Source: a bacterium
Lineage (GTDB): Bacteria; Patescibacteriota; Patescibacteriia; Patescibacteriales; GWE2-39-37
Assembly: GCA_037146995.1 (NCBI GenBank)
Contig: JBAWWA010000003.1
Coordinates: forward strand, 24,663-88,662
Direction of reading: 5' to 3'
Length of the DNA stretch: 64,000 nucleotides
The first letter of the stretch is position 1, and each line of letters begins with the position of its first letter. Below, piece by piece: positions 640 through 44,640 of this stretch. A program made the translations under genes and the position numbers. Under the pieces are notes generated by a model. That model did no database searches and had not been told where the DNA came from. It was given only the letters and a program-made list of their open reading frames with translations.

Positions 640-2061
640 TTATTTCTTGCTCGTTAATAAATCCAATTTAAAAAAACCAACTATACCAATTAAGAGCCAA
701 AAAATAACTGCTAGGTCATTTTTAAAATATGGCACGTCCACTAAACCATGAATGGTCATAGCTACCAATCCACCAATTGTCGCTAGTAAAATTAAACGTC
801 CCGTCTCGGGTGATTTCATACGATAATACATCTTCGTGCTTACGTAAAGGGTCTTGCCTATCAACCAGACAAAAAGTAGCATCCCAAGTAGACCTAGTTC
901 TGACCAAAAGTTTAAGAAAATATTATGCGGATACATATAGATTTCTAATGGCTGCCAAAACTTATTACGATAATTTTGATCAAAAATCACTAGTTTGCGA
1001 TGAAAATCAGCATCTTTATCGCGATTATAGTAAAAACCAGGCACATGATACGGTGCCACGGTTTTTTGAAAACTGGCCAGACCAGCACCAAAAAACCAAC
1101 GATGATCCTTGAGCATATTCACAGTCTCTGACCAACCGATGCGACGAACCTGCCCAGAAAAGTCGTTTAGGGTTAAATATTCAAGTGCCTTGTCACGTTT
1201 AAAACCAAACCCAAATACTATAAGTACCACAATAGAGACCGCTGCCAGCCAGACAAGTCTAGATTTTTTTGAATAGATCAGGGCCATAACCGAAAAACCG
1301 GCCACCAGACCAAGTGCTGCCCCATTTGATCTGGCAAAGGCAATCGCCAGAACTGAAAACATCGCAGACAAAAAGAGTAGGCAATTTTGTAAAGTTACTA
1401 GGGCCTTATCTTTTTTATTAAATTCGGTCCACATGAAACCCACAGACAAAAATATAATAGATTCAACATATAGACCGACTGCATTGGGGTAACCAAAAAC
1501 CGAAACTACGCGCCGCGTCTCTTCGGCCGCCCACAAAGGATTGGCAATAAAGTTTCCGGTTAGCTTTTGATAGGCCGCAATAATTCCCACAGCTAATGCC
1601 GAATACCCCAAGGGGCGAATAATTAAACCCAAGCGCTCCACCAAATCAATTTTCGACTTTCCAAAAACATTATAGAGCAGAATCAAAAAGAGTAACGGTT
1701 CAAAAAAATAGGCCTTCCAAATACCCATGGCTTCATTTGAAAAATGTGCCACCCCGACCGCTAAAAAAGAAATAACGAGGATGGCCATCATCTCGAGAGC
1801 AAAAGGATATTCTATAACGATCAATTTATTATTACCGAATCTGTTTTTAATCCCTGACAACAAACCACGCCACTCCTTGATAAACCAAATGACAAAATTT
1901 AGTAATATCATGACTTCAAGCATTGTCAGAGGTGCCCCAAAATTAAAACGAACAAGGTACGCCGGCAATGAAAAAAGTGTTAGCTGTATTGCTAACACTG
2001 GTCGATACCAAGCCAGGCCAGAAAAAATCAAGATAAAACTGAAAATTAAATAAAACATCAT
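640..2061 (-). CDS. O-antigen ligase/polymerase-like polytopic membrane protein
   Basis: 473-aa ORF, almost entirely hydrophobic helices with one larger loop. The architecture is typical of Wzy_C/O-antigen-ligase-like proteins. It lies 9 nt upstream (same strand) of the pseudouridine synthase gene. Confidence 0.5.
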   Translation of the reverse strand: MMFYLIFSFILIFSGLAWYRPVLAIQLTLFSLPAYLVRFNFGAPLTMLEVMILLNFVIWFIKEWRGLLSGIKNRFGNNKLIVIEYPFALEMMAILVISFLAVGVAHFSNEAMGIWKAYFFEPLLFLILLYNVFGKSKIDLVERLGLIIRPLGYSALAVGIIAAYQKLTGNFIANPLWAAEETRRVVSVFGYPNAVGLYVESIIFLSVGFMWTEFNKKDKALVTLQNCLLFLSAMFSVLAIAFARSNGAALGLVAGFSVMALIYSKKSRLVWLAAVSIVVLIVFGFGFKRDKALEYLTLNDFSGQVRRIGWSETVNMLKDHRWFFGAGLASFQKTVAPYHVPGFYYNRDKDADFHRKLVIFDQNYRNKFWQPLEIYMYPHNIFLNFWSELGLLGMLLFVWLIGKTLYVSTKMYYRMKSPETGRLILLATIGGLVAMTIHGLVDVPYFKNDLAVIFWLLIGIVGFFKLDLLTSKK

Positions 2062-2096
2062 TTGACTACAAAAACAGAAAATTAAAAAACGTCAAC

Positions 2097-3074
2097 TTAA
2101 GAAATTAGAATATACAAACCATAACTCACTAGAGCCACGCCGCCCAGCTTTTGGAGTACTACACCCCTGCCCAACTCCTCGTTATATATTTGCGGCACGA
2201 AACGCGACATCGCCAGTACAATTAAAATCAAAAATAAATATTGAGTGCCCTGCATTACCTGGACCATCGCCACATTACCAAGACTGATTGCCCAATTAAT
2301 CATAATAAACGCCATGGCCGCTAAAAATCTTACGCCGAGGAAAAAAGTTAGGCTCGATTGTTTTTTGACACCGGTCTTTTGATGCTCCATGATAGCCACT
2401 CGCCATGAAGGTATTAGCAACATCGCTAGCACAGCCAAAAAGGTACCTAGCCTTGACCAAACAAATGAACCCATAAATGGCTCATGCATATAAATGTACT
2501 TGATCAAAACATTATAAGCAGCAAAAAACATAGCTGAAATCAAAGAATTAATGAACAAGCGTCTGGTTGGTAAATACTTAGCATGAATTTCGCCCAATAA
2601 TTCCCTGACCCGATTACTAATCTTTTGCCAAAAATAAACTTTAGTTTGTTTAATTGAAATGAGGGTGCCGCCGGCTATCAAAATAACAAAAGCCACTAAG
2701 CTTTTAGGATCCAGGGTTTCACCCAAAAACACCACTGCAAAGATCAAAGTGAAAATCGGCGTCAACGCACCGACGATCGGCACCACTCGCGTCGCCTCAG
2801 ATTGATGTAGTGCCTTGTACCAAAAAACGATCGTCAACAAAAACAAAGCGCCAGCTGATAGATCGATCAATAGCCAAGTCGGACTAGGAACATATGGCGC
2901 AAAAACTAAAAAGACAAAATTAAGCACGCTCCAAATACCAACATAAAAGGCGTAGGCAATCGAGGAATGAAAACGCTTGGACAGCATGAACTTGTCTGCG
3001 ACGTAAACACCAGCGTTTATAAAATAGGCAAAAATTGCAACAAATATCCAATCCATATATTTATATTTTAGCAC
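2097..3074 (-). CDS. EamA/DMT-type transporter-like membrane protein
   Basis: 325 aa with about 10 predicted TM helices arranged as two similar halves, which is the drug/metabolite transporter architecture. Confidence 0.55.
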   Translation of the reverse strand: MLKYKYMDWIFVAIFAYFINAGVYVADKFMLSKRFHSSIAYAFYVGIWSVLNFVFLVFAPYVPSPTWLLIDLSAGALFLLTIVFWYKALHQSEATRVVPIVGALTPIFTLIFAVVFLGETLDPKSLVAFVILIAGGTLISIKQTKVYFWQKISNRVRELLGEIHAKYLPTRRLFINSLISAMFFAAYNVLIKYIYMHEPFMGSFVWSRLGTFLAVLAMLLIPSWRVAIMEHQKTGVKKQSSLTFFLGVRFLAAMAFIMINWAISLGNVAMVQVMQGTQYLFLILIVLAMSRFVPQIYNEELGRGVVLQKLGGVALVSYGLYILIS

Positions 3075-3127
3075 TTGAAGCCGAAATTAAAAAGACTTAT
3101 ATCAACATAAGTCTTAATTTTTTGGTT

Positions 3128-3565
3128 TTAGTAAACCGTCATATTATCATACTTGTCACCGACGGGTGTGTCTGGCACAAAATAACTAAATAAATGCAAT
3201 TCAACATTTTCATTGGAGACGACAAAGAAGTGATTTTTATCTGAAAATACACGAACTGCAAAGTTGCCGTTAGAGACACTTTGTTCAATCGGTGATAATT
3301 TCATGACATAATAATTTGAACAATAACCAAGAAAAAATTTCGCATCCTTGGGACCAGTCACACGCAGAACTGCATAGCGACGACACATAAAATGTTTCAT
3401 TAACCAATTTAAAACACCGCTGTGACTTTTTTTTGTTTCCTTGTAAATAGCCTTCGGATCAGCTTCAACATCAACAAACGGCGACCAATGATCAAAACCA
3501 TTTTCCAGTTTCGTTTGTTTATAAACAATTCTTTGCCAGGGCTTCTTATAAAATACAAATTTCAT
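3128..3565 (-). CDS. hypothetical protein
   Basis: 145-aa ORF with a GGAGG SD 5 nt upstream of the ATG (reverse complement of 3566-3580). No motif recognised. Confidence 0.5.
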   Translation of the reverse strand: MKFVFYKKPWQRIVYKQTKLENGFDHWSPFVDVEADPKAIYKETKKSHSGVLNWLMKHFMCRRYAVLRVTGPKDAKFFLGYCSNYYVMKLSPIEQSVSNGNFAVRVFSDKNHFFVVSNENVELHLFSYFVPDTPVGDKYDNMTVY

Positions 3566-3602
3566 CGAGCACCTCCAACAATATTAAATGAACTAATTAT
3601 GA

Positions 3603-4838
3603 TTATTCTGACCAAAAACCGTTATTTTTGCAAGTCTCGGCGTATATTTTGGCACTCGGCCTAGCAAGTCGCTTGAAAGTCTGCGGCTCAATCGAAAACA
3701 AACCAAATTTCGGTTGGTAACCAGCCGCCCATTCAAAATTGTCCAAAAGCGACCAATGGAAATAGCCACGGACATCAAAGCCGTCATCAATTGCTCGCTT
3801 AACATGAAACAAGTGATCCCTAATAAAGTCGGCGCGATACTGGTCACGGGAATCAGCCAAGCCGTTCTCCATTATATAGAGCGGCTTTTTAAATTTCGAA
3901 AGACTTTTAATAACCTCATATATGCCCTTCGGATAAATTTCCCAGCCCATGTCAGTCACCTTGTTATTTAAATTTTTGCGAAAAGGTGGATACCAAACTA
4001 TCCGATCATGAAAATAATAATCAAAAGCCACATAATCGATAAAGTCCTTGGTTGCCTTTAAAAATGCCACATTCCACCACCAATGATAAGTTTTTGCTAA
4101 AATTAGCTCAATAATATTAAATTTATGCGCCGGCTCAATAAAATTCGCAATCGAGGTAAAACCGACTTGTGCCTGCTTAATGCTGTTATGAATGATCTCG
4201 TATACCTTTTTTTGAGCCAAGATTAAATGTTTTCTCGTTAAAAAAGCTCCAATAATGTCAAATTTCCTGTTTGGCGGAAATTTACCGGTCAAATAACCAT
4301 TACCGATGTGAATCATGGGTTCGTTCAAAACCACCCAAAAATCAACATAATCACCAAATTCATCTACACATAATTGGCTAAATCTAGCAAAAAAATTAAC
4401 AGTTTTATGGTTTGTCCAACCGTCAGCTTCGCTAATCCAGGTTGGGTTTGTCCAATGCCACAAAGTTAAAGCCAGTTTGATATTTCTCTTTTTTAAAGAA
4501 ATAAACATTTTTTTGTAATTTTGGATGACATTTTTATCGAATTTGCCCTCCTCTGGTTCAATTCTGGACCATTCAAGCCCCATCCTATATACATTGCAAT
4601 TCAGCGACTCGATCAAATCAAAATCCTGCTCGAAAAATTGCCAAGAATTACAGGCCTCGCCACTAATAAACTCTTCAAGCTTTTCACCGCGCAAGGCTAA
4701 GTCTTTTTTTCTGCTTGCTGATTTTTCCCAGACAGACCAGTCATTTTTATTACCTCCTTCGATTTGATAAGCACTAGTTGAAACACCCCACAAAAAATTA
4801 TCTGGAAACTTTGCTAAATTTAGATTTTTTTTATTCAT
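3603..4838 (-). CDS. glycoside hydrolase family 1 (beta-glucosidase-like)
   Basis: 411 aa. N-terminal FLWGVSTSAYQIEGG, acid/base motif VLNEPMI (NEP) and nucleophile motif YIMENGLAD (ENG) are the canonical GH1 signatures. Confidence 0.85.
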   Translation of the reverse strand: MNKKNLNLAKFPDNFLWGVSTSAYQIEGGNKNDWSVWEKSASRKKDLALRGEKLEEFISGEACNSWQFFEQDFDLIESLNCNVYRMGLEWSRIEPEEGKFDKNVIQNYKKMFISLKKRNIKLALTLWHWTNPTWISEADGWTNHKTVNFFARFSQLCVDEFGDYVDFWVVLNEPMIHIGNGYLTGKFPPNRKFDIIGAFLTRKHLILAQKKVYEIIHNSIKQAQVGFTSIANFIEPAHKFNIIELILAKTYHWWWNVAFLKATKDFIDYVAFDYYFHDRIVWYPPFRKNLNNKVTDMGWEIYPKGIYEVIKSLSKFKKPLYIMENGLADSRDQYRADFIRDHLFHVKRAIDDGFDVRGYFHWSLLDNFEWAAGYQPKFGLFSIEPQTFKRLARPSAKIYAETCKNNGFWSE

Positions 4839-5017
4839 TTCTTTATTATAACATAGTTATAATTTTTTATCACAAACTTTTTTTAAATTAAATTAAAAAT
4901 TAAATATCTTATAAAATGCCCATTTTTACTGGCTAAAATACGATCACAACACTTCAACCAGATAAAGGTCTGGCTTTTATTTCTAAAATACTTTAATCTG
5001 CTTAGGTCTAGCAAAGC

Positions 5018-5039
5018 ACCTGTGTGAAACCTGTGTAAA
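5018..5039 (+). repeat. tandem 11-nt repeat ACCTGTGTGAA/ACCTGTGTAAA upstream of the rRNA promoter
   Basis: Two adjacent copies (5018-5028 and 5029-5039) differing at one base. They end 17 nt before the -35 hexamer. Confidence 0.6.
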
Positions 5040-5056
5040 ACTAGAGAAAAAAACCC

Positions 5057-5085
5057 TTGACAGCTTAAAAGAAATCGTCTATCAT
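5057..5085 (+). promoter_or_regulatory. sigma70-type promoter for the 16S rRNA transcript
   Basis: TTGACA (5057-5062), 17-nt spacer, TATCAT (5080-5085), preceded by a very AT-rich tract. Confidence 0.55.
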
Positions 5086-5214
5086 ACTATTACGTTTAAT
5101 TTTTCTTTAATCAACGTATCGATCAAGCTAACTTAACACAAGTTAAAAAGTTTGAAAGAATAAACAGCGATGTTAGTCTAATGTCTCTGTTTTTTCTTTC
5201 AAGAATATTGGAAG

Positions 5215-5229
5215 GTACTTTAACAATTG
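5215..5229 (+). promoter_or_regulatory. boxA-like rRNA antitermination element
   Basis: GTACTTTAACAATTG resembles the E. coli rrn boxA TGCTCTTTAACAA. It sits in the 16S leader between the promoter and the processing stem. Confidence 0.45.
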
Positions 5230-5280
5230 AATAGCTTATAATCCTCAATGACAACCGAAGGGTTATAGGCATATTTTGAT

Positions 5281-5296
5281 GCTAACAGGCATCAAT
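5281..5296 (+). other. 5' arm of the 16S precursor processing stem
   Basis: GCTAACAGGCATCAAT is the perfect reverse complement of 7011-7026 (ATTGATGCCTGTTAGC), so the two arms bracket the 16S gene. Confidence 0.7.
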
Positions 5297-5392
5297 CACC
5301 GTCCAAACGTCAAGAATGAATTTATTTTCTTCTATATATTTTGTTGGTTTTTTAAAACTAACATAGCAAAGCCAAGCTATTAAAAAAATTAA

Positions 5393-6888
<1,496 letters not shown>

Positions 6889-36306: not shown

Positions 36307-36380
36307 GGAGCGGTAGTTCAGTTGGTTAGAATGCTGCCCTGTCACGGCAGAGGTCGCGAGTTCGAGTCTCGTCCGCTCCG
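36307..36380 (+). tRNA. tRNA-Asp (GTC)
   Basis: Acceptor GGAGCGG/CCGCTCC, anticodon stem CTGCC/GGCAG, loop CTGTCAC, T arm GCGAG-TTCGAGT-CTCGT. Confidence 0.92.
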
Positions 36381-38000
36381 CACTAAGCAACAAGAAGGTC
36401 CGAAAGGGTCTTCTTTTTGCGTATGTTGCACTAAATCTTCGGTTCTAGTGGCCACATTTTCACGATTCCAAGAAATTATGAAATTATGTGGCAGAACGGT
36501 TGAATTTGCGAGCGTTTTGTCGGTTAAAATCGGGTTATAGTAAACGAATAAAAAGATCTCACGCTTCTCTTCGGGAGAGGCGTTTTTGAATTTCTCTTTG
36601 AGCCGACAGGTGAAGTTCACATAGTCCACCGCCAGATCAAACCAATTCTGACTCGACTGATCAACATCACCCATCTTCTCTTGGATTTTTTCTTTTTCCA
36701 AAACAATCTCTTTCTTCTGTGCCATAAACTCCTCATCACCCATCAGCGAGCCGTCCGTATTATCAGGCGAGATTTTAAGCCTGACCAGATTATCCATTTT
36801 AGCCTGACACCTGATCAAGGCCGTCTGTTGGCGTTTAAGAATATTATCCCGATTGCCAATCTCTTGCTCATTAGCCTTATTAATTTCCTCCAAGGCCAAT
36901 TTTAAAAAGTCCTCATCAACCGTCATGGAATCAATCGTCTGAGCAATCTGTGATTCCAACTCCAGCTCAGAAATATAATGCAGACCAGTACATTTAATAC
37001 AACGATAATAAATAATACCCTTAGCCACCATACCAGAGATATTGCCTCCGCAAGCTCCGCACTTCATAAAATTCGTATAAGTGTAATATCGCTTTTTGAC
37101 CACAGGGCGAGTCCGTCTATGTAATTCTTCCTGCACTCGGTTATAAAGCTCACGACTAATAATCGGCTCATGCCGACCGTCTGGCAACTCCTCAGGCTCA
37201 ATGACTCTGCCTTTCCACAAAATCGCCCCATAATAAAACGGATTCATCATAATGCGGTAAATCGTTACCATGCTGAGTTTCTTTTTACTTCGCTCTCCCA
37301 ATAATCCCCAACCTGCAGTCATCTCCCGCAAATAGTTTAATGTATATTGACCAGTCGCATAGCACTCAAATAATTCTTTGATCAGTGGAGCCATAATCGG
37401 ATCTTTTTCAATCCGTCTTAATGGTCTGTTTAGTTTGGCCAGTACTTCCTGCTTTTCAAACGTGTACTGCTTACCAGAAATCTTGCCCTCCCGATCCATA
37501 TTTAAATAACCCAAAGCGGCAAAGCCTGGGTACTCGCCCTTAAGAATTTTGGCCTGCAAATCACGCCTCACAAATTCCGAAGTATCATCCGAGCTTTTCT
37601 TGGACATGGCGAACTGCAAAGCCAAAAAGAATTCTTGACCTGAGTTTTTAGAATAACTTTCCGAGGGCGTCCTGACTTCCTGTAATACTCCGTCCTTAAG
37701 CATATCTATAACAATACCGCCATCGGTCATATTACGAGCCAAACGGGAGATGTGATAAACCAATATGCCATCGGCTTTGCCCTCTTCGATTAGACTGATC
37801 ATCTTCTCAAACTGAGCCCGACCTCGTTTATAAGCCGATTGCGACTCCTCAAAATCTCCTACAATTTTTATACCCTCTTTGCGAGCAAACTCGGCCAGCT
37901 CCCGCTTCTGCGAATCCAAACTCAAAATCTGTCGATCCTCGGAGTCGGACGACTTTCGCCTATAACTGAAATATCTAGTTTTTTGATTTGGTTTCTCCAT
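36342..38000 (-). CDS. large serine recombinase (integrase)
   Basis: 552 aa. Resolvase-type N-terminus (RYFSYRRKSSDSEDRQILSLDSQ, catalytic Ser region; LVYHISRLARN), a recombinase domain, a Zn ribbon (CGACGG...YYRCIKC) and a coiled-coil region. The last ~24 codons are antisense to the terminator and the tRNA-Asp 3' end. Confidence 0.85.
   Translation of the reverse strand: MEKPNQKTRYFSYRRKSSDSEDRQILSLDSQKRELAEFARKEGIKIVGDFEESQSAYKRGRAQFEKMISLIEEGKADGILVYHISRLARNMTDGGIVIDMLKDGVLQEVRTPSESYSKNSGQEFFLALQFAMSKKSSDDTSEFVRRDLQAKILKGEYPGFAALGYLNMDREGKISGKQYTFEKQEVLAKLNRPLRRIEKDPIMAPLIKELFECYATGQYTLNYLREMTAGWGLLGERSKKKLSMVTIYRIMMNPFYYGAILWKGRVIEPEELPDGRHEPIISRELYNRVQEELHRRTRPVVKKRYYTYTNFMKCGACGGNISGMVAKGIIYYRCIKCTGLHYISELELESQIAQTIDSMTVDEDFLKLALEEINKANEQEIGNRDNILKRQQTALIRCQAKMDNLVRLKISPDNTDGSLMGDEEFMAQKKEIVLEKEKIQEKMGDVDQSSQNWFDLAVDYVNFTCRLKEKFKNASPEEKREIFLFVYYNPILTDKTLANSTVLPHNFIISWNRENVATRTEDLVQHTQKEDPFGPSCCLVRSGRDSNSRPLP
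36392..36418 (+). terminator. hairpin terminator after tRNA-Asp
   Basis: AAGAAGGTCC-GAAA-GGGTCTTCTT is a 10-bp stem (two G:U pairs) with a GAAA tetraloop, followed by TTT. It lies inside the antisense tail of the recombinase ORF. Confidence 0.6.
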
Positions 38001-38064
38001 TTATTTGACTAACTCTGGCTATAATGGCGGGATGTTAACGTAGTTTTGATTTTGTGGCAAATAA

Positions 38065-38217
38065 TCAAGTTTTCAAGTTTTGTTTAGAATTTAAAGCAAT
38101 CTTAACCGCCCTAACTAACCGAATATACATATTCAAAGCCTCTTGGCGATTAAGCTTAATCCCATATTTTAGCTCATAAAGAGCAATGAACTTGTCCAAT
38201 CCAGCTTCAGTGATCAT
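38065..38217 (-). CDS. possible 50-aa micro-ORF coupled to the upstream HTH gene
   Basis: Below the track size cutoff. My translation is MITEAGLDKFIALYELKYGIKLNRQEALNMYIRLVRAVKIALNSKQNLKT. Its ATG overlaps the stop of 38207..38749 (ATGATCACTGA). Confidence 0.3.
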   Translation of the reverse strand: MITEAGLDKFIALYELKYGIKLNRQEALNMYIRLVRAVKIALNSKQNLKT

Positions 38218-38749
38218 AACCCTCCTGTTCTTCCTTTTTTATAGTGTTACATTTGTTACATTTCTGTTCATCAACTTCCTCTTTTTTAATCTTATTTTTG
38301 CCTAATTTGGCAACATTTTCTCGCATTTCAGCCAGTATACGCCTACGTTTCTCCCAATCTATACCATCGACGAAACCACTTCCTTCTTTGCTTTTAAAAT
38401 TATTTGAAACCGTTTCCTTAAAATTTTCCTTAATAACTTCCTTATGTACGACTGGTTCGGACGGTTGACCCTGCTCAAACAGTACAGTGATTAGTTTCAA
38501 AAAGGACACCTGACCATTAATCTTCTTATCTAAGCGTACGACTAATCCGTACGCTTTTAATCGTTTGATTGATTTAACCACCGTATCTTTATTCAATCCC
38601 ATCTCCTCGGCAATTTTTCGATAGCCAACAAAAGTCTCACCATTTCTATTGGCGTGAGAAGATAAAGCCATAAAGACCGAGTGGTCGCTAGTATTTAAAT
38701 CTCTGGCGAGCTTTCTAACGAAAGCGTCTGGTATCCAAAATCTCTGCAT
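38207..38749 (-). CDS. winged-helix HTH protein (phage/plasmid replication- or regulator-like)
   Basis: 180 aa. SVFMALSSHANRNGETFVGYRKIAEEMGLNKDTVVKSIKRLKAYGLVV is a typical wHTH (HTH_36/DnaD-N-like). Charged C-terminus with CNKCN. Confidence 0.6.
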   Translation of the reverse strand: MQRFWIPDAFVRKLARDLNTSDHSVFMALSSHANRNGETFVGYRKIAEEMGLNKDTVVKSIKRLKAYGLVVRLDKKINGQVSFLKLITVLFEQGQPSEPVVHKEVIKENFKETVSNNFKSKEGSGFVDGIDWEKRRRILAEMRENVAKLGKNKIKKEEVDEQKCNKCNTIKKEEQEGYDH

Positions 38750-38766
38750 ATAATTTCATTATCATA

Positions 38767-39006
38767 TTATTTGGTGTTAAATATCATCGACTTGATTGCC
38801 TTGAAACCATCAAAGATAATTCTCGGATCGGCTTTTAATTCGCCTGAATAGTATTGCCTGATAATTTTCTGACATTGTTCAGCTTCGGAAAAAATAAAAA
38901 AACACTCCCGTCCTCGCCATTCTGACTTGATAACTTTCAAGCCGAGCGCAAAAAGAGTGCTTGCCAAATATTGATCCTTTGTTTCGTAGCTATCTAAATT
39001 TGCCAT
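38767..39006 (-). CDS. DUF5659-like small protein
   Basis: From the ATG at 39006: MANLDSYETKDQYLASTLFALGLKVIKSEWRGRECFFIFSEAEQCQKIIRQYYSGELKADPRIIFDGFKAIKSMI. The pattern matches DUF5659 proteins seen in phages and mobile elements. Confidence 0.5.
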   Translation of the reverse strand: MANLDSYETKDQYLASTLFALGLKVIKSEWRGRECFFIFSEAEQCQKIIRQYYSGELKADPRIIFDGFKAIKSMIFNTK

Positions 39007-39152
39007 ATGAATTGCATATAAATTAATCTTGCCTAAATCATATGGCCGATGGACAACAAAAAATAGGCTGAACAACCGTCCAGCCGACAATAAAACCGCC
39101 TTATTTCAAGCGGTTTAAATCAGTTATTCACATTTCCAGTTTTGTCCAGCGG

Positions 39153-40124
39153 TTAAGCTGATTTTTTCTTTCGCTCATCCACAAATTCCATTGCCACTGC
39201 TGGCATAATATACCCATTAACTTCTTTAAGAATTTTCGTCTTCTGATATCCCGCCTTATAAAAAACATTTTTGCGATTGGAGTTGATATAATCGAAATAG
39301 TTCTTGTGGCTCTTTTTCTCAAGAGGAATATTTTGTGCGGTCTGAGTTAACAACTTAGCATAAGCAGACTTGCTAATTTCCAACGGATTTCGATAATCAC
39401 CATTAATAACGCATTTATAGTCATTTGAAAGTGGCGACTCGGTAATTATAAGACTAGATATTTCTCCCAATACTGGTCTATCTTCATTTTTAGTTGCTTC
39501 ATCAATAACACGAGCGAATTCGACCAATTTTTTTTTAACATAAATCATCAACTCCAAATTTTCTCCCAGCTCCACCTCTTTTCTTTTGAGAAATAAAAAA
39601 TCACCACTAATTTTATCAGCAATCTCAGCCACGGCAATCCTATCCAGCGCCTTAAAATCAGAAAAAGGAATCGACAAAGACAAATTACAAGCACCCTGAC
39701 CCTTGGCGTAGGGCAGATGAAAAATAACAACTCGCAAAAATTGCTTATAGCTAGATAATTGTTCTTTGCTTAATTTTGCCATCTGTTCGTTTTCGTGAAC
39801 AGTTAACTTGCCAAACTGTTCGCTCAATTCATTATATTTATTCTCAAATGCTTCTGCCTTAATCTTTAACACTAACTCATGCGAACCTATAACAACTAGA
39901 TTGTCGCCACTGATATCTCGATCTGAATAGGTTAAAACTCCCATATTCTTCAAATCAATCAAAACTTGCATATAATCATCATAGTCAAGACTGTCGGAAT
40001 TTAGCACTGAAACCGCATGCTCTGTTCTAATCTCACCAACTAAAACTTTTCCATCCAGCTCAGCCTTAATCTCCTCAAGTACTGCAAATATATTTTGAAG
40101 TTTTTTTAACTCCGAATTGTCCAT
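39153..40124 (-). CDS. hypothetical protein (323 aa), island-borne
   Basis: Long AT-rich ORF divergent from the C-protein/R-M cassette. No motif recognised. Confidence 0.5.
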   Translation of the reverse strand: MDNSELKKLQNIFAVLEEIKAELDGKVLVGEIRTEHAVSVLNSDSLDYDDYMQVLIDLKNMGVLTYSDRDISGDNLVVIGSHELVLKIKAEAFENKYNELSEQFGKLTVHENEQMAKLSKEQLSSYKQFLRVVIFHLPYAKGQGACNLSLSIPFSDFKALDRIAVAEIADKISGDFLFLKRKEVELGENLELMIYVKKKLVEFARVIDEATKNEDRPVLGEISSLIITESPLSNDYKCVINGDYRNPLEISKSAYAKLLTQTAQNIPLEKKSHKNYFDYINSNRKNVFYKAGYQKTKILKEVNGYIMPAVAMEFVDERKKKSA

Positions 40125-40149
40125 ATAAATATCATATAAATCAAGCTCT

Positions 40150-40178
40150 TTGATTGTATTATAAATTAGTGATATAAT
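40150..40178 (+). promoter_or_regulatory. sigma70-type promoter of the C-protein/R-M operon
   Basis: TTGATT (40150-40155), 17-nt spacer, consensus TATAAT (40173-40178). TTGATT is mirrored by AATCAA at 40181-40186. Confidence 0.5.
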
Positions 40179-40219
40179 TTAATCAATATATTATAGTAAA
40201 AGAACTTATTTAATACCCT

Positions 40220-40417
40220 ATGTCAACAATTGGAAAAAATCTCAAAAAACTTCGGGAGTTAAAAGGCATATCTCAAGACAGATTATCGAAATTAGCAGAT
40301 ATATCCCTTAACACAATTGCCAAGTTAGAGCTTGGCGAAAATCCCAACCCAACAATTGATACCCTTAATAAAATTTCAAAAGCTCTCGGTGTAAAAGTCG
40401 ATGACTTAATAAAATAA
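40220..40417 (+). CDS. XRE-family HTH protein, likely R-M controller (C) protein
   Basis: 65 aa. IGKNLKKLRELKGISQDRLSKLADISLNTIAKLELGENPNPTIDTLNKISKALGV is an HTH_3 fold. It lies immediately upstream of the endonuclease candidate. Confidence 0.7.
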   Translation: MSTIGKNLKKLRELKGISQDRLSKLADISLNTIAKLELGENPNPTIDTLNKISKALGVKVDDLIK

Positions 40418-40421
40418 TTAT

Positions 40422-41243
40422 ATGAATGACAATAAACTAGACAAAAAAGATGCTATTAAATCTATTGTAAGGGCATCGGTTGAATCTTATGCCACTGGAT
40501 TTCGTGCAAGGCACGAGGGAGAAGTTGAAAATCCTGATGGTGTTATTAATATGAAAATTCATAATGTCTTTATTGCCGCACTTGGCGAGGACATACAATA
40601 TTATTCAGCTTTAGTTCGTTCACTAGACAGCTCACTGGGCAACATGCTAGAGGGAATGGCAATTAACATTGCTAAGTTATTTTACGATGTCAAAAAAAGC
40701 GTTGAAGGTAAATTATATCCCGAACAAACATCCAAAATAGCTGAACTACTTGAAGCATATAAGAATACAAAAAATCCTGTAAAACCAGATCCTTCTCATT
40801 ACGAGGAGATTAGAAAGATAGAACCAAACTCAAACGTCATTACCAAGGTTCATGTAAGTGATTATTATTTAATGGACAAGGAAACAAATACACACCACTT
40901 AATTGAATTAAAAATCGGAGGCGACTTAGATAATAAAAAGGCCAGATCAGAAAAGGAAGCAATTTTTGAGCAATATGCTATTTTATCAAATTCCTTAGAC
41001 AAGGATGCGATAATTAAATGCCATTTTGCAACTGCCTATAACAGGTTTGGTGAAGACAAAGAGTGGCGACAAGGAAGAGTATTACAATTTTTTTCAAAAG
41101 ACGAATTGCTAATTGGTAAAGATTTTTGGAATTTTGTTTGTAAATCACAAGATGGATATGAATTGGTGCTGGATACCTACAAAGAAAATGCATTTCTAAT
41201 AAGGGAAGCGCTAGAGGCTATTAAAAAAACTTACTTAAACTAA
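40422..41243 (+). CDS. type II restriction endonuclease candidate (PD-(D/E)XK)
   Basis: 273 aa. VSDYYLMDKETNTHHLIELKIGGDLDNKK supplies a D...ELK catalytic-type motif. It sits between a C protein and two methyltransferases. It possibly belongs to the TdeIII-like family, but that rests on memory only. Confidence 0.55.
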   Translation: MNDNKLDKKDAIKSIVRASVESYATGFRARHEGEVENPDGVINMKIHNVFIAALGEDIQYYSALVRSLDSSLGNMLEGMAINIAKLFYDVKKSVEGKLYPEQTSKIAELLEAYKNTKNPVKPDPSHYEEIRKIEPNSNVITKVHVSDYYLMDKETNTHHLIELKIGGDLDNKKARSEKEAIFEQYAILSNSLDKDAIIKCHFATAYNRFGEDKEWRQGRVLQFFSKDELLIGKDFWNFVCKSQDGYELVLDTYKENAFLIREALEAIKKTYLN

Positions 41244-41245
41244 CC

Positions 41246-42367
41246 ATGCAAACACTTATAAAATGGCCTGGGGGCAAAACAAAAGAGTTTGAATATATCA
41301 AAGAGATTATTCCTAAATTTGATCGATATGTTGAGCCATTTTTTGGTGGAGGAGCAGTTTTTTTTCAGCTACAACCAAAAAAAGCTATCATCAATGATAT
41401 ATGTGAAGAATTGGTTGATCTCTATAAATTTGTAAAAGGTGAAGAAGATAGAGATTTGTTTAAAAAAGAATTATTAGATTACGTAGATAACTGGGAGAAA
41501 ATTCCAAAATACATAAAAGTCTTTGAAAAAAAATTATTCAACCTATACGCAAAATACCGAAATGACGAAGTAACAATACAAGAACTCCAAAAAACAATAA
41601 ATGACATATTGCGCAAGGAAGAAGATAAATTCAACGGACTATTTCATAAAAGTTTTTGCCTCGATGAACAAAATTTGTTAAAGCAAATTATTGCTAATTT
41701 AATTTCAAAGATTAAAAGAACAAAGGACATTGAGAAACAAAGAGGTGATCTGCCAGAGGGTGATTTAGAAAAAAATATTGAAACAGGATTTAGGAGTGGT
41801 TTTTATATGCACTTCAGGGATGTCATGAATTTTAATGGCACAAAATTTAAAACAACAAAAGCAAAAAAAATTGCTAACTATTATTTTATAAGAGAATTTT
41901 GTTATGCCTCGATGTTTCGATTTAATAGTAGTGGACACTTCAACATTCCCTATGGTGGCATAGGCTATAACAATAAAGATTTTAGAAAAAAGGTTGAGCA
42001 TGTGTTAAATCCAACTATTCAAGAATTGTTTAGAAACACAAAAATTGAAAATAAAGATTTTGAATTGATATTCAAAGAGAACGACCTAACCAAAAAAGAT
42101 TTTATTTTTTTGGATCCTCCGTATGATACTGATTTCAGCGACTACGAAAAGGCATCATTCGACAAAAAAGATCAAGAGAGGCTAGCAAATTGTTTATACA
42201 AAACCAAGGCTAATTTTATTCTTATAATTAAGAAAACTCCTTTCATTTACAATCTTTATAAAAATAAAGACGGAATTAAAATAGATAAGTTTGATAAAAC
42301 ATATCTGTACAATGTTAAGGGCAGAAATGATCGCGATGTTGAACACTTAGTAATTTATAACTTCTAA
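41246..42367 (+). CDS. Dam-like (D12 class, alpha) N6-adenine DNA methyltransferase
   Basis: 373 aa. LIKWPGGKTKE, FxGxG motif PFFGGGAVFF and motif IV FLDPPYDTDF. It carries extra sequence between the motifs compared with E. coli Dam. Confidence 0.8.
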   Translation: MQTLIKWPGGKTKEFEYIKEIIPKFDRYVEPFFGGGAVFFQLQPKKAIINDICEELVDLYKFVKGEEDRDLFKKELLDYVDNWEKIPKYIKVFEKKLFNLYAKYRNDEVTIQELQKTINDILRKEEDKFNGLFHKSFCLDEQNLLKQIIANLISKIKRTKDIEKQRGDLPEGDLEKNIETGFRSGFYMHFRDVMNFNGTKFKTTKAKKIANYYFIREFCYASMFRFNSSGHFNIPYGGIGYNNKDFRKKVEHVLNPTIQELFRNTKIENKDFELIFKENDLTKKDFIFLDPPYDTDFSDYEKASFDKKDQERLANCLYKTKANFILIIKKTPFIYNLYKNKDGIKIDKFDKTYLYNVKGRNDRDVEHLVIYNF

Positions 42368-42368
42368 A

Positions 42369-43151
42369 ATGCAACAATATATTAATAAAATCATTCATGG
42401 CGATTGTATTAATGTGTTAAAAGAATTACCAGACAATTCAATTGATTTAGTATTCGCTGATCCACCATATTTTCTCCAGCTACCGAAGGGTAAGAGATTA
42501 AAAAGAGCGGATGGTTCTGAGGTGATACCAGTCGATGATGAATGGGATAAATTTGAGAGCTATGAAGATTATGATAATTTTACGCATAATTGGATTAAAG
42601 AGTGTCAAAGAGTTTTAAAAACAACAGGCACAATTTGGATAATAGGCATGTATCACAACATCTTTAGAGTTGGAAAAATAATGCAAGATCTTGGGATATG
42701 GTTTTTAAACGATGTAATATGGGTGAAGATTGGAGCATTGCCTAATTTGAGTTGCCGAAGATTGACCAATAATCATGAAACATTGCTCTGGGCAGTAAAA
42801 GATAAAAATTGCAAAAAATATACGTTCAATTATAAACTCCTAAAAGAAATGAATGGCGGGAAGCAAATGAAGGATACTGATTGGAATTTTTCCATTTGCA
42901 GGGGTGGCGAACGTCTTCGAGGTGCTGACGGGATTAAATCACACCCAACTCAAAAGCCATTAAAACTAATCCAACAAGTTATTTTAACAGCATCAAAAAA
43001 AGGTGACTTAATACTCGACCCTTTTATGGGAAGCGGAACTACTGCTGTTGTTGCAAAGGCATTAGATCGCAACTGGATTGGAATTGAGAAAGAAAAAAAG
43101 TATGTTGATCTAGCAACCGAGAGGGTAAATAATTTTAGTCTTTCAAAATAA
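42369..43151 (+). CDS. beta-class N4/N6 DNA methyltransferase
   Basis: 260 aa. Motif IV VFADPPYF near the N-terminus and motif I ILDPFMGSGTTAVVA near the C-terminus give the beta-class order. HPTQKPLKLI is also present. Confidence 0.82.
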   Translation: MQQYINKIIHGDCINVLKELPDNSIDLVFADPPYFLQLPKGKRLKRADGSEVIPVDDEWDKFESYEDYDNFTHNWIKECQRVLKTTGTIWIIGMYHNIFRVGKIMQDLGIWFLNDVIWVKIGALPNLSCRRLTNNHETLLWAVKDKNCKKYTFNYKLLKEMNGGKQMKDTDWNFSICRGGERLRGADGIKSHPTQKPLKLIQQVILTASKKGDLILDPFMGSGTTAVVAKALDRNWIGIEKEKKYVDLATERVNNFSLSK

Positions 43152-43178
43152 AAGCAAATTTAACCTTATTAATTATAG

Positions 43179-44336
43179 ATGAAAATACATTTTGACCAAG
43201 TCCAAGACTTGACTGGTTTTGCCTTGGAGGGTGCTCTTGGTGGCGAAACTGTTAAAATTTTAACTAGATCATTGCTCACCTCGGATGATCCAGAGTTTTA
43301 TTTATACTCAGAAAAGATTTCCAATATATTTTTTAATGGAATTCTTATATCACCCAACATGGTGCATCAGTTTCTGGTGATTATTCATTCTGACCTAAGT
43401 GCAGACTTATATGTAAACGATATAAATATATTGCTGGAAGTAAAGGTTAAGAAGGATATTAAACAAGGAGAAGCTATAATGCAAGACGACATTGCGGATA
43501 TTAGAAAAGTTAAATTTCCAGATATTGAAATTACTGAATCTGATAAAGTAATTTATTGTTTTAAGGTTGGCTGGCGTTTTGGTCTGTTTTTTGATCTCGG
43601 CACTCACGTTCAAACAGTTAACACACCACCAGGCATATTGGTTGAAAAATTAGATTTAGACAAAATGTCTTTATCAATAGGCGATATTTATCGATACCTG
43701 TCATTTTATCATGTTTATAAAACACTCGAAGCCGAATCAAGATTTAAGGAAATTATTAAAGATGGATGGTTTCCATTTATTGAAATTATTGGGTCAGAAT
43801 TCAAATTATTAACGGAGATATATCATGATAAATTTGATTTTCAAAACAGAATAACGCAAATACTTAATAATTTTACAAAAGAACGAATTGATAAAATTTC
43901 CAATAAATGGTGGGGTAACGATATTTTTGCCAACAAAAAAGAACTCATAATGGCTGGCATAAAGGCCTACCTAGACAATGATCAATCAGGATACATTAAT
44001 TGCATTAAAAATCTTTGGTCTGAAACGGAGGGTATTTTACGTGCCATTTATCATATCGATACCGGCAAAGGTAATAACGTTAAAACACCAGACTTAATAT
44101 CCCACATCATAAACAAGGCAAAAAATAAGTCCGGTTCCGATTTCTCACTCTTATTACCTTTATCTTTTCTAGAATACTTAAAAGATGTGGCATTCGCGAG
44201 TTTTAATACAGAAACTGGAGATGTTGAGCTTTCAAGAAATTCTTCTGGCCATGGCGTTGCAGAAGTTAATCAATATACAAAAATAAGAGCACTGCAATTA
44301 ATTTTAATTTTAGACCAAATATACTACTACGGTTAA
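43179..44336 (+). CDS. hypothetical protein with a C-terminal HEPN-like Rx4H motif
   Basis: 385 aa. ELSRNSSGHGVAEVN (R353-N-x3-H358-G, DNA 44235-44255) lies 27 aa (H358) to 32 aa (R353) from the C-terminus in a helix-rich region, as in HEPN RNases. The N-terminal ~200 aa are unrecognised. Confidence 0.45.
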   Translation: MKIHFDQVQDLTGFALEGALGGETVKILTRSLLTSDDPEFYLYSEKISNIFFNGILISPNMVHQFLVIIHSDLSADLYVNDINILLEVKVKKDIKQGEAIMQDDIADIRKVKFPDIEITESDKVIYCFKVGWRFGLFFDLGTHVQTVNTPPGILVEKLDLDKMSLSIGDIYRYLSFYHVYKTLEAESRFKEIIKDGWFPFIEIIGSEFKLLTEIYHDKFDFQNRITQILNNFTKERIDKISNKWWGNDIFANKKELIMAGIKAYLDNDQSGYINCIKNLWSETEGILRAIYHIDTGKGNNVKTPDLISHIINKAKNKSGSDFSLLLPLSFLEYLKDVAFASFNTETGDVELSRNSSGHGVAEVNQYTKIRALQLILILDQIYYYG

Positions 44337-44342
44337 TGCTCA

Positions 44343-44431
44343 AATTCACCCAGTTCTAGTGCCTAACCACCAATTCACCCAATTCCTCCAACTTCACCCC
44401 GTGTAACCCCGTTCTTGCCCGAATTCGCCCA
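44343..44431 (+). repeat. C-rich tract with four short direct repeats (A/C)(A/C)TTC(A/G)CCC(A/C)
   Basis: AATTCACCCA at 44343 and 44372, ACTTCACCCC at 44391 and AATTCGCCCA at 44422. Additional CCC(C) runs fall at roughly 10-11-nt spacing between 44397 and 44430. The + strand is G-poor here. Confidence 0.6.
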
Positions 44432-44565
44432 CTTGGGAGCCAATGATCGAGATCACCACGAAGTACTCAATTACAACGAATGTTGCCCCACTTTTGGCAC
44501 AATGTAATAGCGGTCCAGCTCTTGAAAGTAGGTTATAATCAGTTTCACTACCCCCCGCAATAAAA

Positions 44566-44596
44566 ACACCCACCTTATCAGGTGGGTGTTTTGTTG
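44566..44596 (+). terminator. intrinsic terminator at the probable right end of the island
   Basis: ACACCCACC-TTATCA-GGTGGGTGT is a perfect 9-bp stem followed by TTTTGTTGTT. Confidence 0.7.
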
Positions 44597-44640
44597 TTAC
44601 GACATTTATAAAATTAGCATTTATTTGTTATACTAAAATT

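Follow-up and report, generated by a model that had tools for sequence, protein, structure and literature searches.

The window, that is, the whole stretch of 64,000 nucleotides (nt) analyzed here, contains a host tRNA-Asp(GTC) gene (36307..36381, plus strand, called by ARAGORN) that is the integration target of an 8177-bp island. To the left of the tRNA gene lie a kinase-like gene, lspA and a dksA-type zinc-finger gene, and to the right of the island a cohesin-like gene is followed by tig, hppA, nusA and pnp; the core genes that a preliminary description of this DNA had named on either side (lspA and the dksA-like gene on the left, tig, hppA, nusA and pnp beyond the island) are all found there. 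The same description had noticed a 552-amino-acid (aa) open reading frame (ORF) on the opposite strand after lspA, the dksA-like gene and the tRNA, and this ORF is located at 36342..38000 on the minus strand, where it encodes a large serine recombinase (LSR) in its integrated state, assigned by Pfam and by 673 homologues. G+C content falls to 0.31-0.33 over 40-44 kb, compared with about 0.40 in the rest of the window, which bears out the statement that the cargo is more AT-rich than the core, and the island as a whole has a value of 0.357 against 0.400 in its flanks. The proposed island size of about 8.2 kb stands, while the right edge proposed at 44597 does not, the boundary lying at 44559/44560. 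Very probably, the island is an integrative element carrying a restriction-modification system, inserted by its LSR at the 3′ end of tRNA-Asp, with its own attachment site (attP) inside the LSR gene and with the tail of the enzyme swapped on insertion. We establish its anatomy, its two junctions, the tail swap and an empty site in a related genome.

The recombinase gene crosses the left boundary of the element. Residues 1-541 (36378-38000) are element-encoded, and the final 11 residues, SGRDSNSRPLP (36345-36377), are translated from the antisense strand of the tRNA gene. The last 13 codons and the stop (36342-36381) are antisense to the tRNA, and the residues KEDPFGPSCC cover a neighboring hairpin, in agreement with the earlier observation that the 3′ codons run antisense to both. 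Pfam identifies a Resolvase domain (PF00239, E 2.7e-19, residues 12-156) and a Recombinase domain (PF07508, E 7.1e-12, residues 203-296); of the three domains expected in the preliminary description these two are confirmed, and the third, Zn_ribbon_recom, stays below its cut-off (18.6 versus 25.3 bits). Residues Y13, R15 and S17 are invariant (in 35 and 31 aligned homologues), as are C314, C317 and C334 in the aligned homologues. Structural information comes from an AlphaFold2 model of P0018, a homologue that is 56% identical and of the attP type (mean predicted local distance difference test score, pLDDT, 82), rather than from the window protein itself. In this model, β-hairpins at 321-335 and 492-499 flank long paired helices (364-411 and 423-465), and FoldSeek returns full-length matches to the integrases of SPbeta, phiC31 and Bxb1 (E 1e-19 to 1e-14), to which the LSR is 13-18% identical; PDB matches obtained from sequence only cover the catalytic domain alone. 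A zinc-ribbon domain with an embedded coiled coil is accordingly recognizable in the modeled fold of the family. No tyrosine recombinase domain (Phage_integrase) was detected by Pfam in the island, and the view that the LSR carried the element is further favored by its domains and family and by an identity of only 5 bp between the junctions. By all testable criteria the enzyme is a large serine recombinase, and recombination of attP with the host attachment site (attB) is predicted from its sequence and model.

Identity between the left and right junctions (attL and attR) is limited to the sequence CCGCA, which occupies 36378..36382 in attL and 44555..44559 in attR, and the junction position is resolved to these 5 bp. 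The attL core, the sole block identical with attR, holds the crossover dinucleotide and is made up of the final two bases of the acceptor stem, the discriminator G and two bases of the trailer. At the right side there is no direct repeat of the tRNA end longer than 5 bp; the absence of a long repeat, already remarked upon, is reflected in CCGCA being all that the two junctions have in common. Read on the LSR strand, attL is ...TGC TTA GTG CGG AGC GGA CGA GAC TCG AAC..., encoding C L V R S G R D S N, and attR is ...TTT TTA TTG CGG GGG GTA GTG AAA CTG ATT ATA ACC TAC TTT.... The predicted plus-strand junctions are GAGTCTCGTCCGCTCCGCA joined to ATAAAAACACCCACCTTATCAGG for attB and GTTTCACTACCCCCCGCA joined to CTAAGCAACAAGAAGGTCCG for attP, the latter reading CTTGTTGCTTAGTGCGG joined to GGGGTAGTGAAACTGATTATAACC on the LSR strand. 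The attB site is composed of the tRNA T arm, the acceptor end and the trailer, and its B′ half is the T arm with the 3′ acceptor strand. The P′ arm of attP (44471..44554, minus strand) consists of 27 codons and the stop of the native LSR tail, GVVKLIITYFQELDRYYIVPKVGQHSL, and contains a T-loop-like motif, ATTATAAC.

The tail is exchanged at this boundary. On the LSR strand the right end supplies, in frame, an alternative tail of 27 aa, and joining the ends of the island at CGG (junction GTG CGG joined to GGG GTA) gives an open frame ...CCLVR-GVVKLIITYFQELDRYYIVPKVGQHSL followed by a stop. Because this in-frame tail has homologous counterparts at the C-termini of relatives that are not integrated and lack a tRNA-like ending, such as P0019 (RRGVVDKIITFFKQNPAFYICKFN), P0018 (RNAVDGIITFFKEELKGYYVIPTL) and P0015 (REKVDEVITFFKEYKGYYYIPKLPN), the 3′ part of the LSR gene itself contains attP. 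Integration removes 27 native residues and brings in 11 tRNA-antisense residues, the enzyme measuring 568 aa in its excised and 552 aa in its integrated form. The earlier proposal that integration rewrites the C-terminus of the recombinase gains from this resemblance, and also from the conservation of tails among homologues: tRNA-like tails occur only beside a tRNA, and the remaining homologues part ways precisely at the crossover codon. P0012, with a tRNA tail, and P0018, with an attP tail, are 81% identical over 547 residues, and their alignment stops at the crossover codon. In the P0018 model this codon lies in the middle of a predicted C-terminal helix (530-554, pLDDT 71-88), and the replacement tail encoded by the tRNA is proline-rich.

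The detached 27-codon tail is under purifying selection. Between the window and the sister island L015, whose LSR is 76% identical, the tail differs by nine synonymous codons and one non-synonymous codon (dN 0.033, dS 0.749, dN/dS about 0.04), and the codon comparison with a further island, L091, has a similar outcome. Constraint from DNA binding could explain the first eight or so codons, but it leaves the conservation of the others unaccounted for. The tail must consequently be translated in some context, and the reconstituted gene is the sole frame that gives it a start.

An island-free site is found in L097 (Logan SRR29063589), a congener whose tig protein is 77% identical. The order there is tig, a 294-aa cohesin-like gene, tRNA-Asp, dksA and lspA, with a gap of 438 nt between the flanking protein genes that contains a tRNA-Asp identical over 75 nt. 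The tRNA is followed by about 70 nt with a hairpin, a run of eight T, the promoter-like sequence TTGTTATAAT and then the start codon of the cohesin-like gene, and the window has the same architecture to the right of 44559. The synteny comparison therefore upholds the view of an integrated island, since in the congener dksA, tRNA-Asp, a terminator, the cohesin-like gene and tig follow one another without any insert. L094 and L096 (tig 63% identical) likewise have tig and then tRNA-Asp with no island, and are weaker witnesses than L097, as their other flank differs. As a separate observation, a tRNA-Asp-like sequence lies directly upstream of the genuine tRNA-Asp in L097 (3110-3260); it is interrupted by three short G+C-rich hairpins, and ARAGORN makes no tRNA call on it.

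The junctions, together with the empty site, also reassign the two terminators. The hairpin AAGAAGGTCC-GAAA-GGGTCTTCTT with its T-run (36392..36415, plus strand) had been taken as the core terminator of the tRNA; it is element DNA within the LSR ORF, lying in the P arm of attP and antisense to the KEDPFGPSCC codons, and the L097 empty site has a different terminator. Conversely, the strong terminator at 44566-44596 had been ascribed to the island itself, and it is the displaced terminator of the host tRNA, arranged alike in L097. This native tRNA-Asp terminator, ACACCCACC-TTATCA-GGTGGGTGT with a T-run (44566..44598, plus strand, terminator scan), is host DNA that now stands 8.2 kb from its tRNA. 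The P-arm hairpin was missed by the simple terminator scan and is called from folding, with a minimum free energy (MFE) of -16 kcal/mol in the window and -12 to -24 kcal/mol in its clade; automatic counts of T-runs are unreliable here, as T-tracts pair with upstream A-tracts in the MFE structures. Most family members have a hairpin at the equivalent site, on the strand opposite conserved LSR codons such as KKDAFAS, with a T-run behind it in many of them. Since copies in the attP configuration have it as well, the element brings along a replacement terminator for the tRNA, and the hairpin at 36392-36415 is predicted to act as such for tRNA-Asp. Another terminator-like hairpin with a T-run (36561..36583, plus strand, terminator scan) is situated inside the LSR ORF on the tRNA-sense strand, 180 nt downstream of the tRNA, and may guard the integrase gene from antisense read-through.

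Homologues of the LSR number 673 at E <= 1e-3, and most of them come from Patescibacteria and Peregrinibacteria. Of the 120 cluster representatives nearest to it, 63 end in a tRNA-antisense tail (for example GRDSNPRPLP, RPDSNRRPIA and LDSNQRPPR), which is the translated antisense T arm (GAT TCG AAC encoding D S N). Another 23 end in a clear attP-type tail, x-D-x-I-R-T-F/Y, while many of the remainder stop 1-3 codons past a common W/V-R/L position. Genomes were scanned with an alignment of 35 members, taking one genome per species. A tRNA on the opposite strand with its 3′ end inside the LSR ORF is present at 53 of 80 loci (Asp 23, Asn 14, Ser 7, Gln 4, Trp 3, His 2), and two further loci have tRNA-like tails missed by ARAGORN. 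The attR sites were sought in 10-kb flanks as at least 5/6 matches to the locus's own core plus the motif N-T-N-[CA]-[GT]-A-A-C at offset 21-28, with an estimated 0.01 false hits per locus. Eight loci, the window and seven others, yield exactly one site each, and the islands so delimited measure 8.2-11.2 kb. An in-frame attP-type tail stands at attR in all eight (e.g., WRRVVDEIITFWQTDSERFFIPGLSLETVELV followed by a stop), and the blocks of attL/attR identity in the other seven measure 5-13 bp and include the discriminator region in all cases, at the same offsets. Related LSR genes in the attP configuration are seen in L098 and L102, the latter (Logan SRR22388173, 1700-1800) being the closest LSR relative at 88% identity, with GCTCGAAC at offset 21-28. 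In L102 a 1-nt insertion before the core shifts the frame of the tail, and the protein ends in LTSAVYS and a stop. Three other attP-type LSR genes (L030, L034 and L082) sit inside large chromosomal contigs of 72-695 kb, and these copies may be within larger elements or inactive. A full-text search of the literature found no description of this tRNA-end LSR family of Patescibacteria, which is apparently large and undescribed in these bacteria of the candidate phyla radiation (CPR).

The attL and attP sequences of the family suggest how the two sites could be told apart. Offsets are measured from the T of TGG, which is antisense to CCA and reads GTG in the window. On this scale the antisense of the T-loop, A-Y-T-C-G-A-A-C, lies at offsets 16-23 in every attL, a position fixed by tRNA geometry. 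In the eight attP-type genes, anchored independently by protein alignment, the motif NNN[CA][GT]AAC lies at offset 21-28 without exception (TTTAGAAC, GTGCGAAC, ATCCGAAC twice, GTTCGAAC, ATTCGAAC, GTTAGAAC and ATTATAAC). The T-loop-like motif is consequently 5 bp farther out in attP than the T-loop is in attB, in the P′/B′ half only. Moreover, the R/I codon is CGA, AGA or ATA in 16 of 16 sequences, its third base always being A, and the fact that no other synonym is ever chosen points to a constraint at the DNA level. For the Listeria (LI) integrase, Rutherford et al. located the zinc-ribbon motif at bp 16-24 in attP versus 11-19 in attB (PMC3783163), and the 5-bp offset in the window family fits that model. 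By this standard LSR logic for distinguishing attP from attB, the zinc-ribbon domain would read the T-loop in attB and a T-loop mimic 5 bp farther from the crossover in attP.

The course of events is as follows. Strand exchange takes place within TGCGG, i.e., the discriminator and the last acceptor bases. Integration leaves the tRNA intact and pushes its native terminator 8.2 kb away, and the element hairpin antisense to LSR codons takes its place. The full-length 568-aa enzyme made from the circular element would be the integration-competent form. In the integrated state, the tail swap may modulate the activity, stability or directionality of the enzyme, by analogy with the IntP/IntX forms of phage Mx8. 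If excision still takes place, it would probably require a partner, for which the conserved 50-aa protein encoded directly upstream of the LSR is one candidate. A broader proposition joins these elements: that Patescibacteria harbor, across the phylum, LSRs directed to tRNA ends whose own ORF contains a T-loop mimic offset by 5 bp, that the exchange of the C-terminal helix is a covalent switch, and that the same DNA performs triple duty. This combination is put forward tentatively, as one that may well fail in one of its parts. If it is true, one stretch of DNA serves as protein code, as attP and, on its other strand, as a replacement tRNA terminator, and the helix exchange sets directionality, stability or activity according to the free or integrated state, without a separate regulator.

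Several observations weigh against the main reading, insertion by the LSR with a tail swap. As regards recognition, no clear motif is common to the P and B arms, the 5-bp offset concerns one half-site only, and the conservation of the I-R-T residues could be partly a matter of the protein rather than of the DNA. The dyad symmetry of attP and attB is not above shuffled expectation, and the central dinucleotide can for this reason be placed no closer than TGCGG. As regards the tail, some integrated relatives end 1-3 codons past the crossover, so that a specific integrated tail is not needed, and a functional effect of the swap is something that we only infer. As regards mobility, exact-protein look-ups with dksA, the cohesin-like gene, tig and the LSR yielded no empty site of the same species, and both assemblies that hold this species carry the island. 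An exact scan of JGI metagenomes and IMG/VR with the P′ arm gave neither an excised circle nor an attP junction, returning the attR of L015 and one LSR-less derivative only. Whole contigs with attP-type genes have no terminal overlaps that would mark them as circular. Since neither an excised circle nor a same-species empty site has been found, we infer rather than observe that the window copy is still mobile.

These points bear most directly on the possibility that the LSR integrated the island in former times and that it is now an immobile, resident restriction-modification locus. The presence of the island on every contig found for this species, the failure to detect a circle junction in JGI metagenomes and IMG/VR, and decayed, LSR-less derivatives at the same site in relatives (L091) all speak for such a relic. 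The missing polymorphism is weak evidence, because just two or three assemblies of the species exist. On the other side, the LSR ORF, the ORF of the P′ tail, both att junctions and the gene of the 50-aa partner are all intact, the tail is under purifying selection, the congener L097 lacks the island, and cargo varies among close relatives of the element. A fixed relic is on balance unlikely.

In L091 (JGI Ga0208492_1001913, 1160-5570), a 4.3-kb LSR-less derivative lies at tRNA-Asp between direct repeats of 55 bp (core and hairpin); it retains roughly 110 nt from the 3′ end of the LSR gene together with the complete P′ tail, carries a homologue of a 385-aa cargo protein of the window (78% identical) and an L015-like DpnI, and may have arisen by tandem insertion followed by deletion. 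In L001/L005 (Logan SRR7053542) the assembly breaks inside tRNA-Asp, and the host and LSR contigs overlap by 30 nt; the break implies a branch of the assembly graph at the tRNA, which other tRNA-Asp contexts in the community could produce. The attP-type contig L098 was considered as a circular permutation of the integrated L100 (LSR 81% identical), and this candidate was rejected because only the LSR and a small upstream gene are common to the two.

The island contains 10 ORFs. Directly upstream of the LSR, the 50-aa protein (38065..38217, minus strand) has no Pfam or PADLOC match and is a candidate directionality factor or regulator; according to a profile search, 29 of 84 family loci, integrated ones as well as attP-type ones, have a homologue at this place. 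It is followed by an HTH_36 / DnaD_N-like DNA-binding protein (38207..38749, minus strand; Pfam HTH_36 8e-11), also present in L015 and part of the backbone, possibly with a replication or regulatory role, and by a backbone DUF5659 protein (38767..39090, minus strand; Pfam 5.4e-5, just under cut-off) with homologues in 4 of the 8 delimited islands. A 323-aa protein at 39153..40124 (minus strand) is known as an ORF without family match. The plus strand then encodes an HTH_3 controller (C) protein (40220..40417; Pfam HTH_3 3e-15, PADLOC Control_protein 5e-11), a type II endonuclease of the TdeIII/HinfI family (40422..41243; PF09520 4e-38), a D12-class N6-adenine methyltransferase (41246..42367; PF02086 2e-37, PADLOC MTase_II 7e-56), an N6_N4 DNA methyltransferase (42369..43151; PF01555 2e-67, PADLOC MTase_II 9e-119) and the 385-aa cargo protein without family match (43179..44336). 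The controller, the endonuclease and the two methylases give substance to the description of this region as mobile and defense cargo: they form a type II restriction-modification system in one co-directional block, whose activity is predicted from sequence. Between the cargo and the P′ arm, a conserved non-coding stretch of 134 nt (44337..44470) contains four GGGYGAAKT repeats on the LSR-sense strand, which appear on the plus strand as AAYTCRCCC at 44343, 44372, about 44390 and 44422. In L015 and L091, whose cargo is different, the stretch is conserved with its repeats equally far from the P′ arm; the repeats may be sites for an accessory protein or iterons.

Sister islands share a backbone of the LSR, the 50-aa upstream gene, DUF5659 and sometimes HTH_36, with cargo that differs and is always of the defense type: HNH, DpnI, Mrr and Fic in L015, and type III restriction-modification systems in L060 and L100. 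This content bears on whether the island could be a prophage or phage satellite, be it a temperate phage that is defective or miniature or a phage-inducible island. Integrases of the LSR type are typical of phages, and the HTH_36/DnaD_N-like and small HTH proteins resemble the replication-regulation modules of phages and satellites. Nevertheless, Pfam and PADLOC detect no virion, packaging, lysis or conjugation genes either in the 10 ORFs of the island or in those sister islands that were sampled, all of which lack capsid, terminase, portal, tail and lysis genes, and at 8-11 kb the islands are much smaller than tailed phages. A scan of the 2.9 million contigs of IMG/VR with the LSR alignment gave only 4 distant matches (best 23-26% identical), so that the family is essentially absent from that collection, and on this result the prophage reading was rejected as improbable. 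Less probable still is that the attP lies beyond the functional end of the LSR and the T-arm antisense happens to be free of stops, no tail being swapped: the integrated tail is indeed arbitrary, with its stop 12-150 nt into the tRNA depending on the tRNA, and several relatives stop 1-3 codons after the crossover, but such chance read-through is contradicted by the in-frame tail homologous to attP-type tails in 8/8 delimited islands, by its dN/dS of about 0.04, by close homologues parting exactly at the crossover codon and by the mid-helix position of that codon in the model.

The integrative element identified here has several implications. For a family of hundreds of recombinases, attB is predictable from tRNA genes alone and attP readable from the integrase gene. 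The natural series of attP/attB pairs at Asp, Asn, Ser, Gln, Trp and His tRNAs displays the 5-bp offset model and is useful both for the study and for the re-targeting of serine integrases, while the tail swap offers a testable hypothesis on directionality control. The elements also represent a mobile vehicle for defense genes (restriction-modification, DpnI/Mrr, Fic) in CPR bacteria, in which, to our knowledge, mobile elements are poorly known and genetic tools scarce.

Among known systems, the serine integrases of phiC31, Bxb1, Listeria A118/LI, SPbeta (SprA) and TP901-1 have the same domain order as the window enzyme (catalytic domain, recombinase domain, zinc ribbon with coiled coil), and canonical members likewise use short att sites with few identical bases and an attP motif located 5 bp farther out (PMC3783163). 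They differ in that their attP is intergenic, next to int, and in that they target protein-coding genes or intergenic sites, whereas the window element has its attP within the int ORF and is targeted to a tRNA 3′ end. Serine integrases rarely target tRNA genes (PMC4383910, PMC7192596), and the literature agrees with the preliminary description that a tRNA 3′ end is unusual for this class of recombinase. Out of 297 S-Int islands, Mageeney et al. (2020) placed 14 at t(m)RNA genes by computation and flagged them as unreported before and needing proof (PMC7192596); that work covers complete genomes and not metagenome-assembled genomes of CPR bacteria, and gives no attP within an ORF, tail swap or motif offset for the 14 islands. 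The word tRNA is absent from the large LSR survey by Durrant et al.

The closest parallel in mechanism is provided by tyrosine integrases. As in the window, the attP of Mx8 lies within the int coding sequence, and integration gives the gene (IntP/IntX) a new 3′ end and C-terminus (PMC6070905). Mx8 Int nevertheless belongs to the tyrosine recombinases and uses arm-type sites and a long identity core, versus a serine recombinase with a 5-bp core, and Mx8 is a 49-kb tailed phage of a proteobacterium, versus an 8-kb non-phage element in Patescibacteria. The attB of Mx8 also overlaps a tRNA-Asp gene. The int-embedded attP of Mx8 was reportedly described by Tojo (1996) and Magrini (1999), as cited in PMC6070905. 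The window element works like Mx8 in its C-terminal swap and, being based on a serine recombinase, is not a member of that system. The ORFs of SSV-type integrases (Fuselloviridae) cross attP as well and are partitioned on integration into a tRNA gene, as noted for Mx8 and SSV (PMC4383910). These archaeal enzymes are tyrosine recombinases whose gene is cut into two substantial parts, whereas in the window the last 27 codons are detached. In the mycobacteriophages BPs and Brujita, attP is said by Broussard et al. (2013) to lie in a coding gene, with integration altering the C-terminus and hence stability or activity; in their integration-dependent immunity, unlike in the window, the swapped gene is that of the repressor and the integrase is a tyrosine recombinase. 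An integrase ORF that runs across attP and changes its C-terminus is already known, for the tyrosine integrases of Mx8 and SSV, and what sets the element apart from characterized LSRs is the target at the extreme 3′ end of a tRNA gene together with an attP within the integrase ORF.

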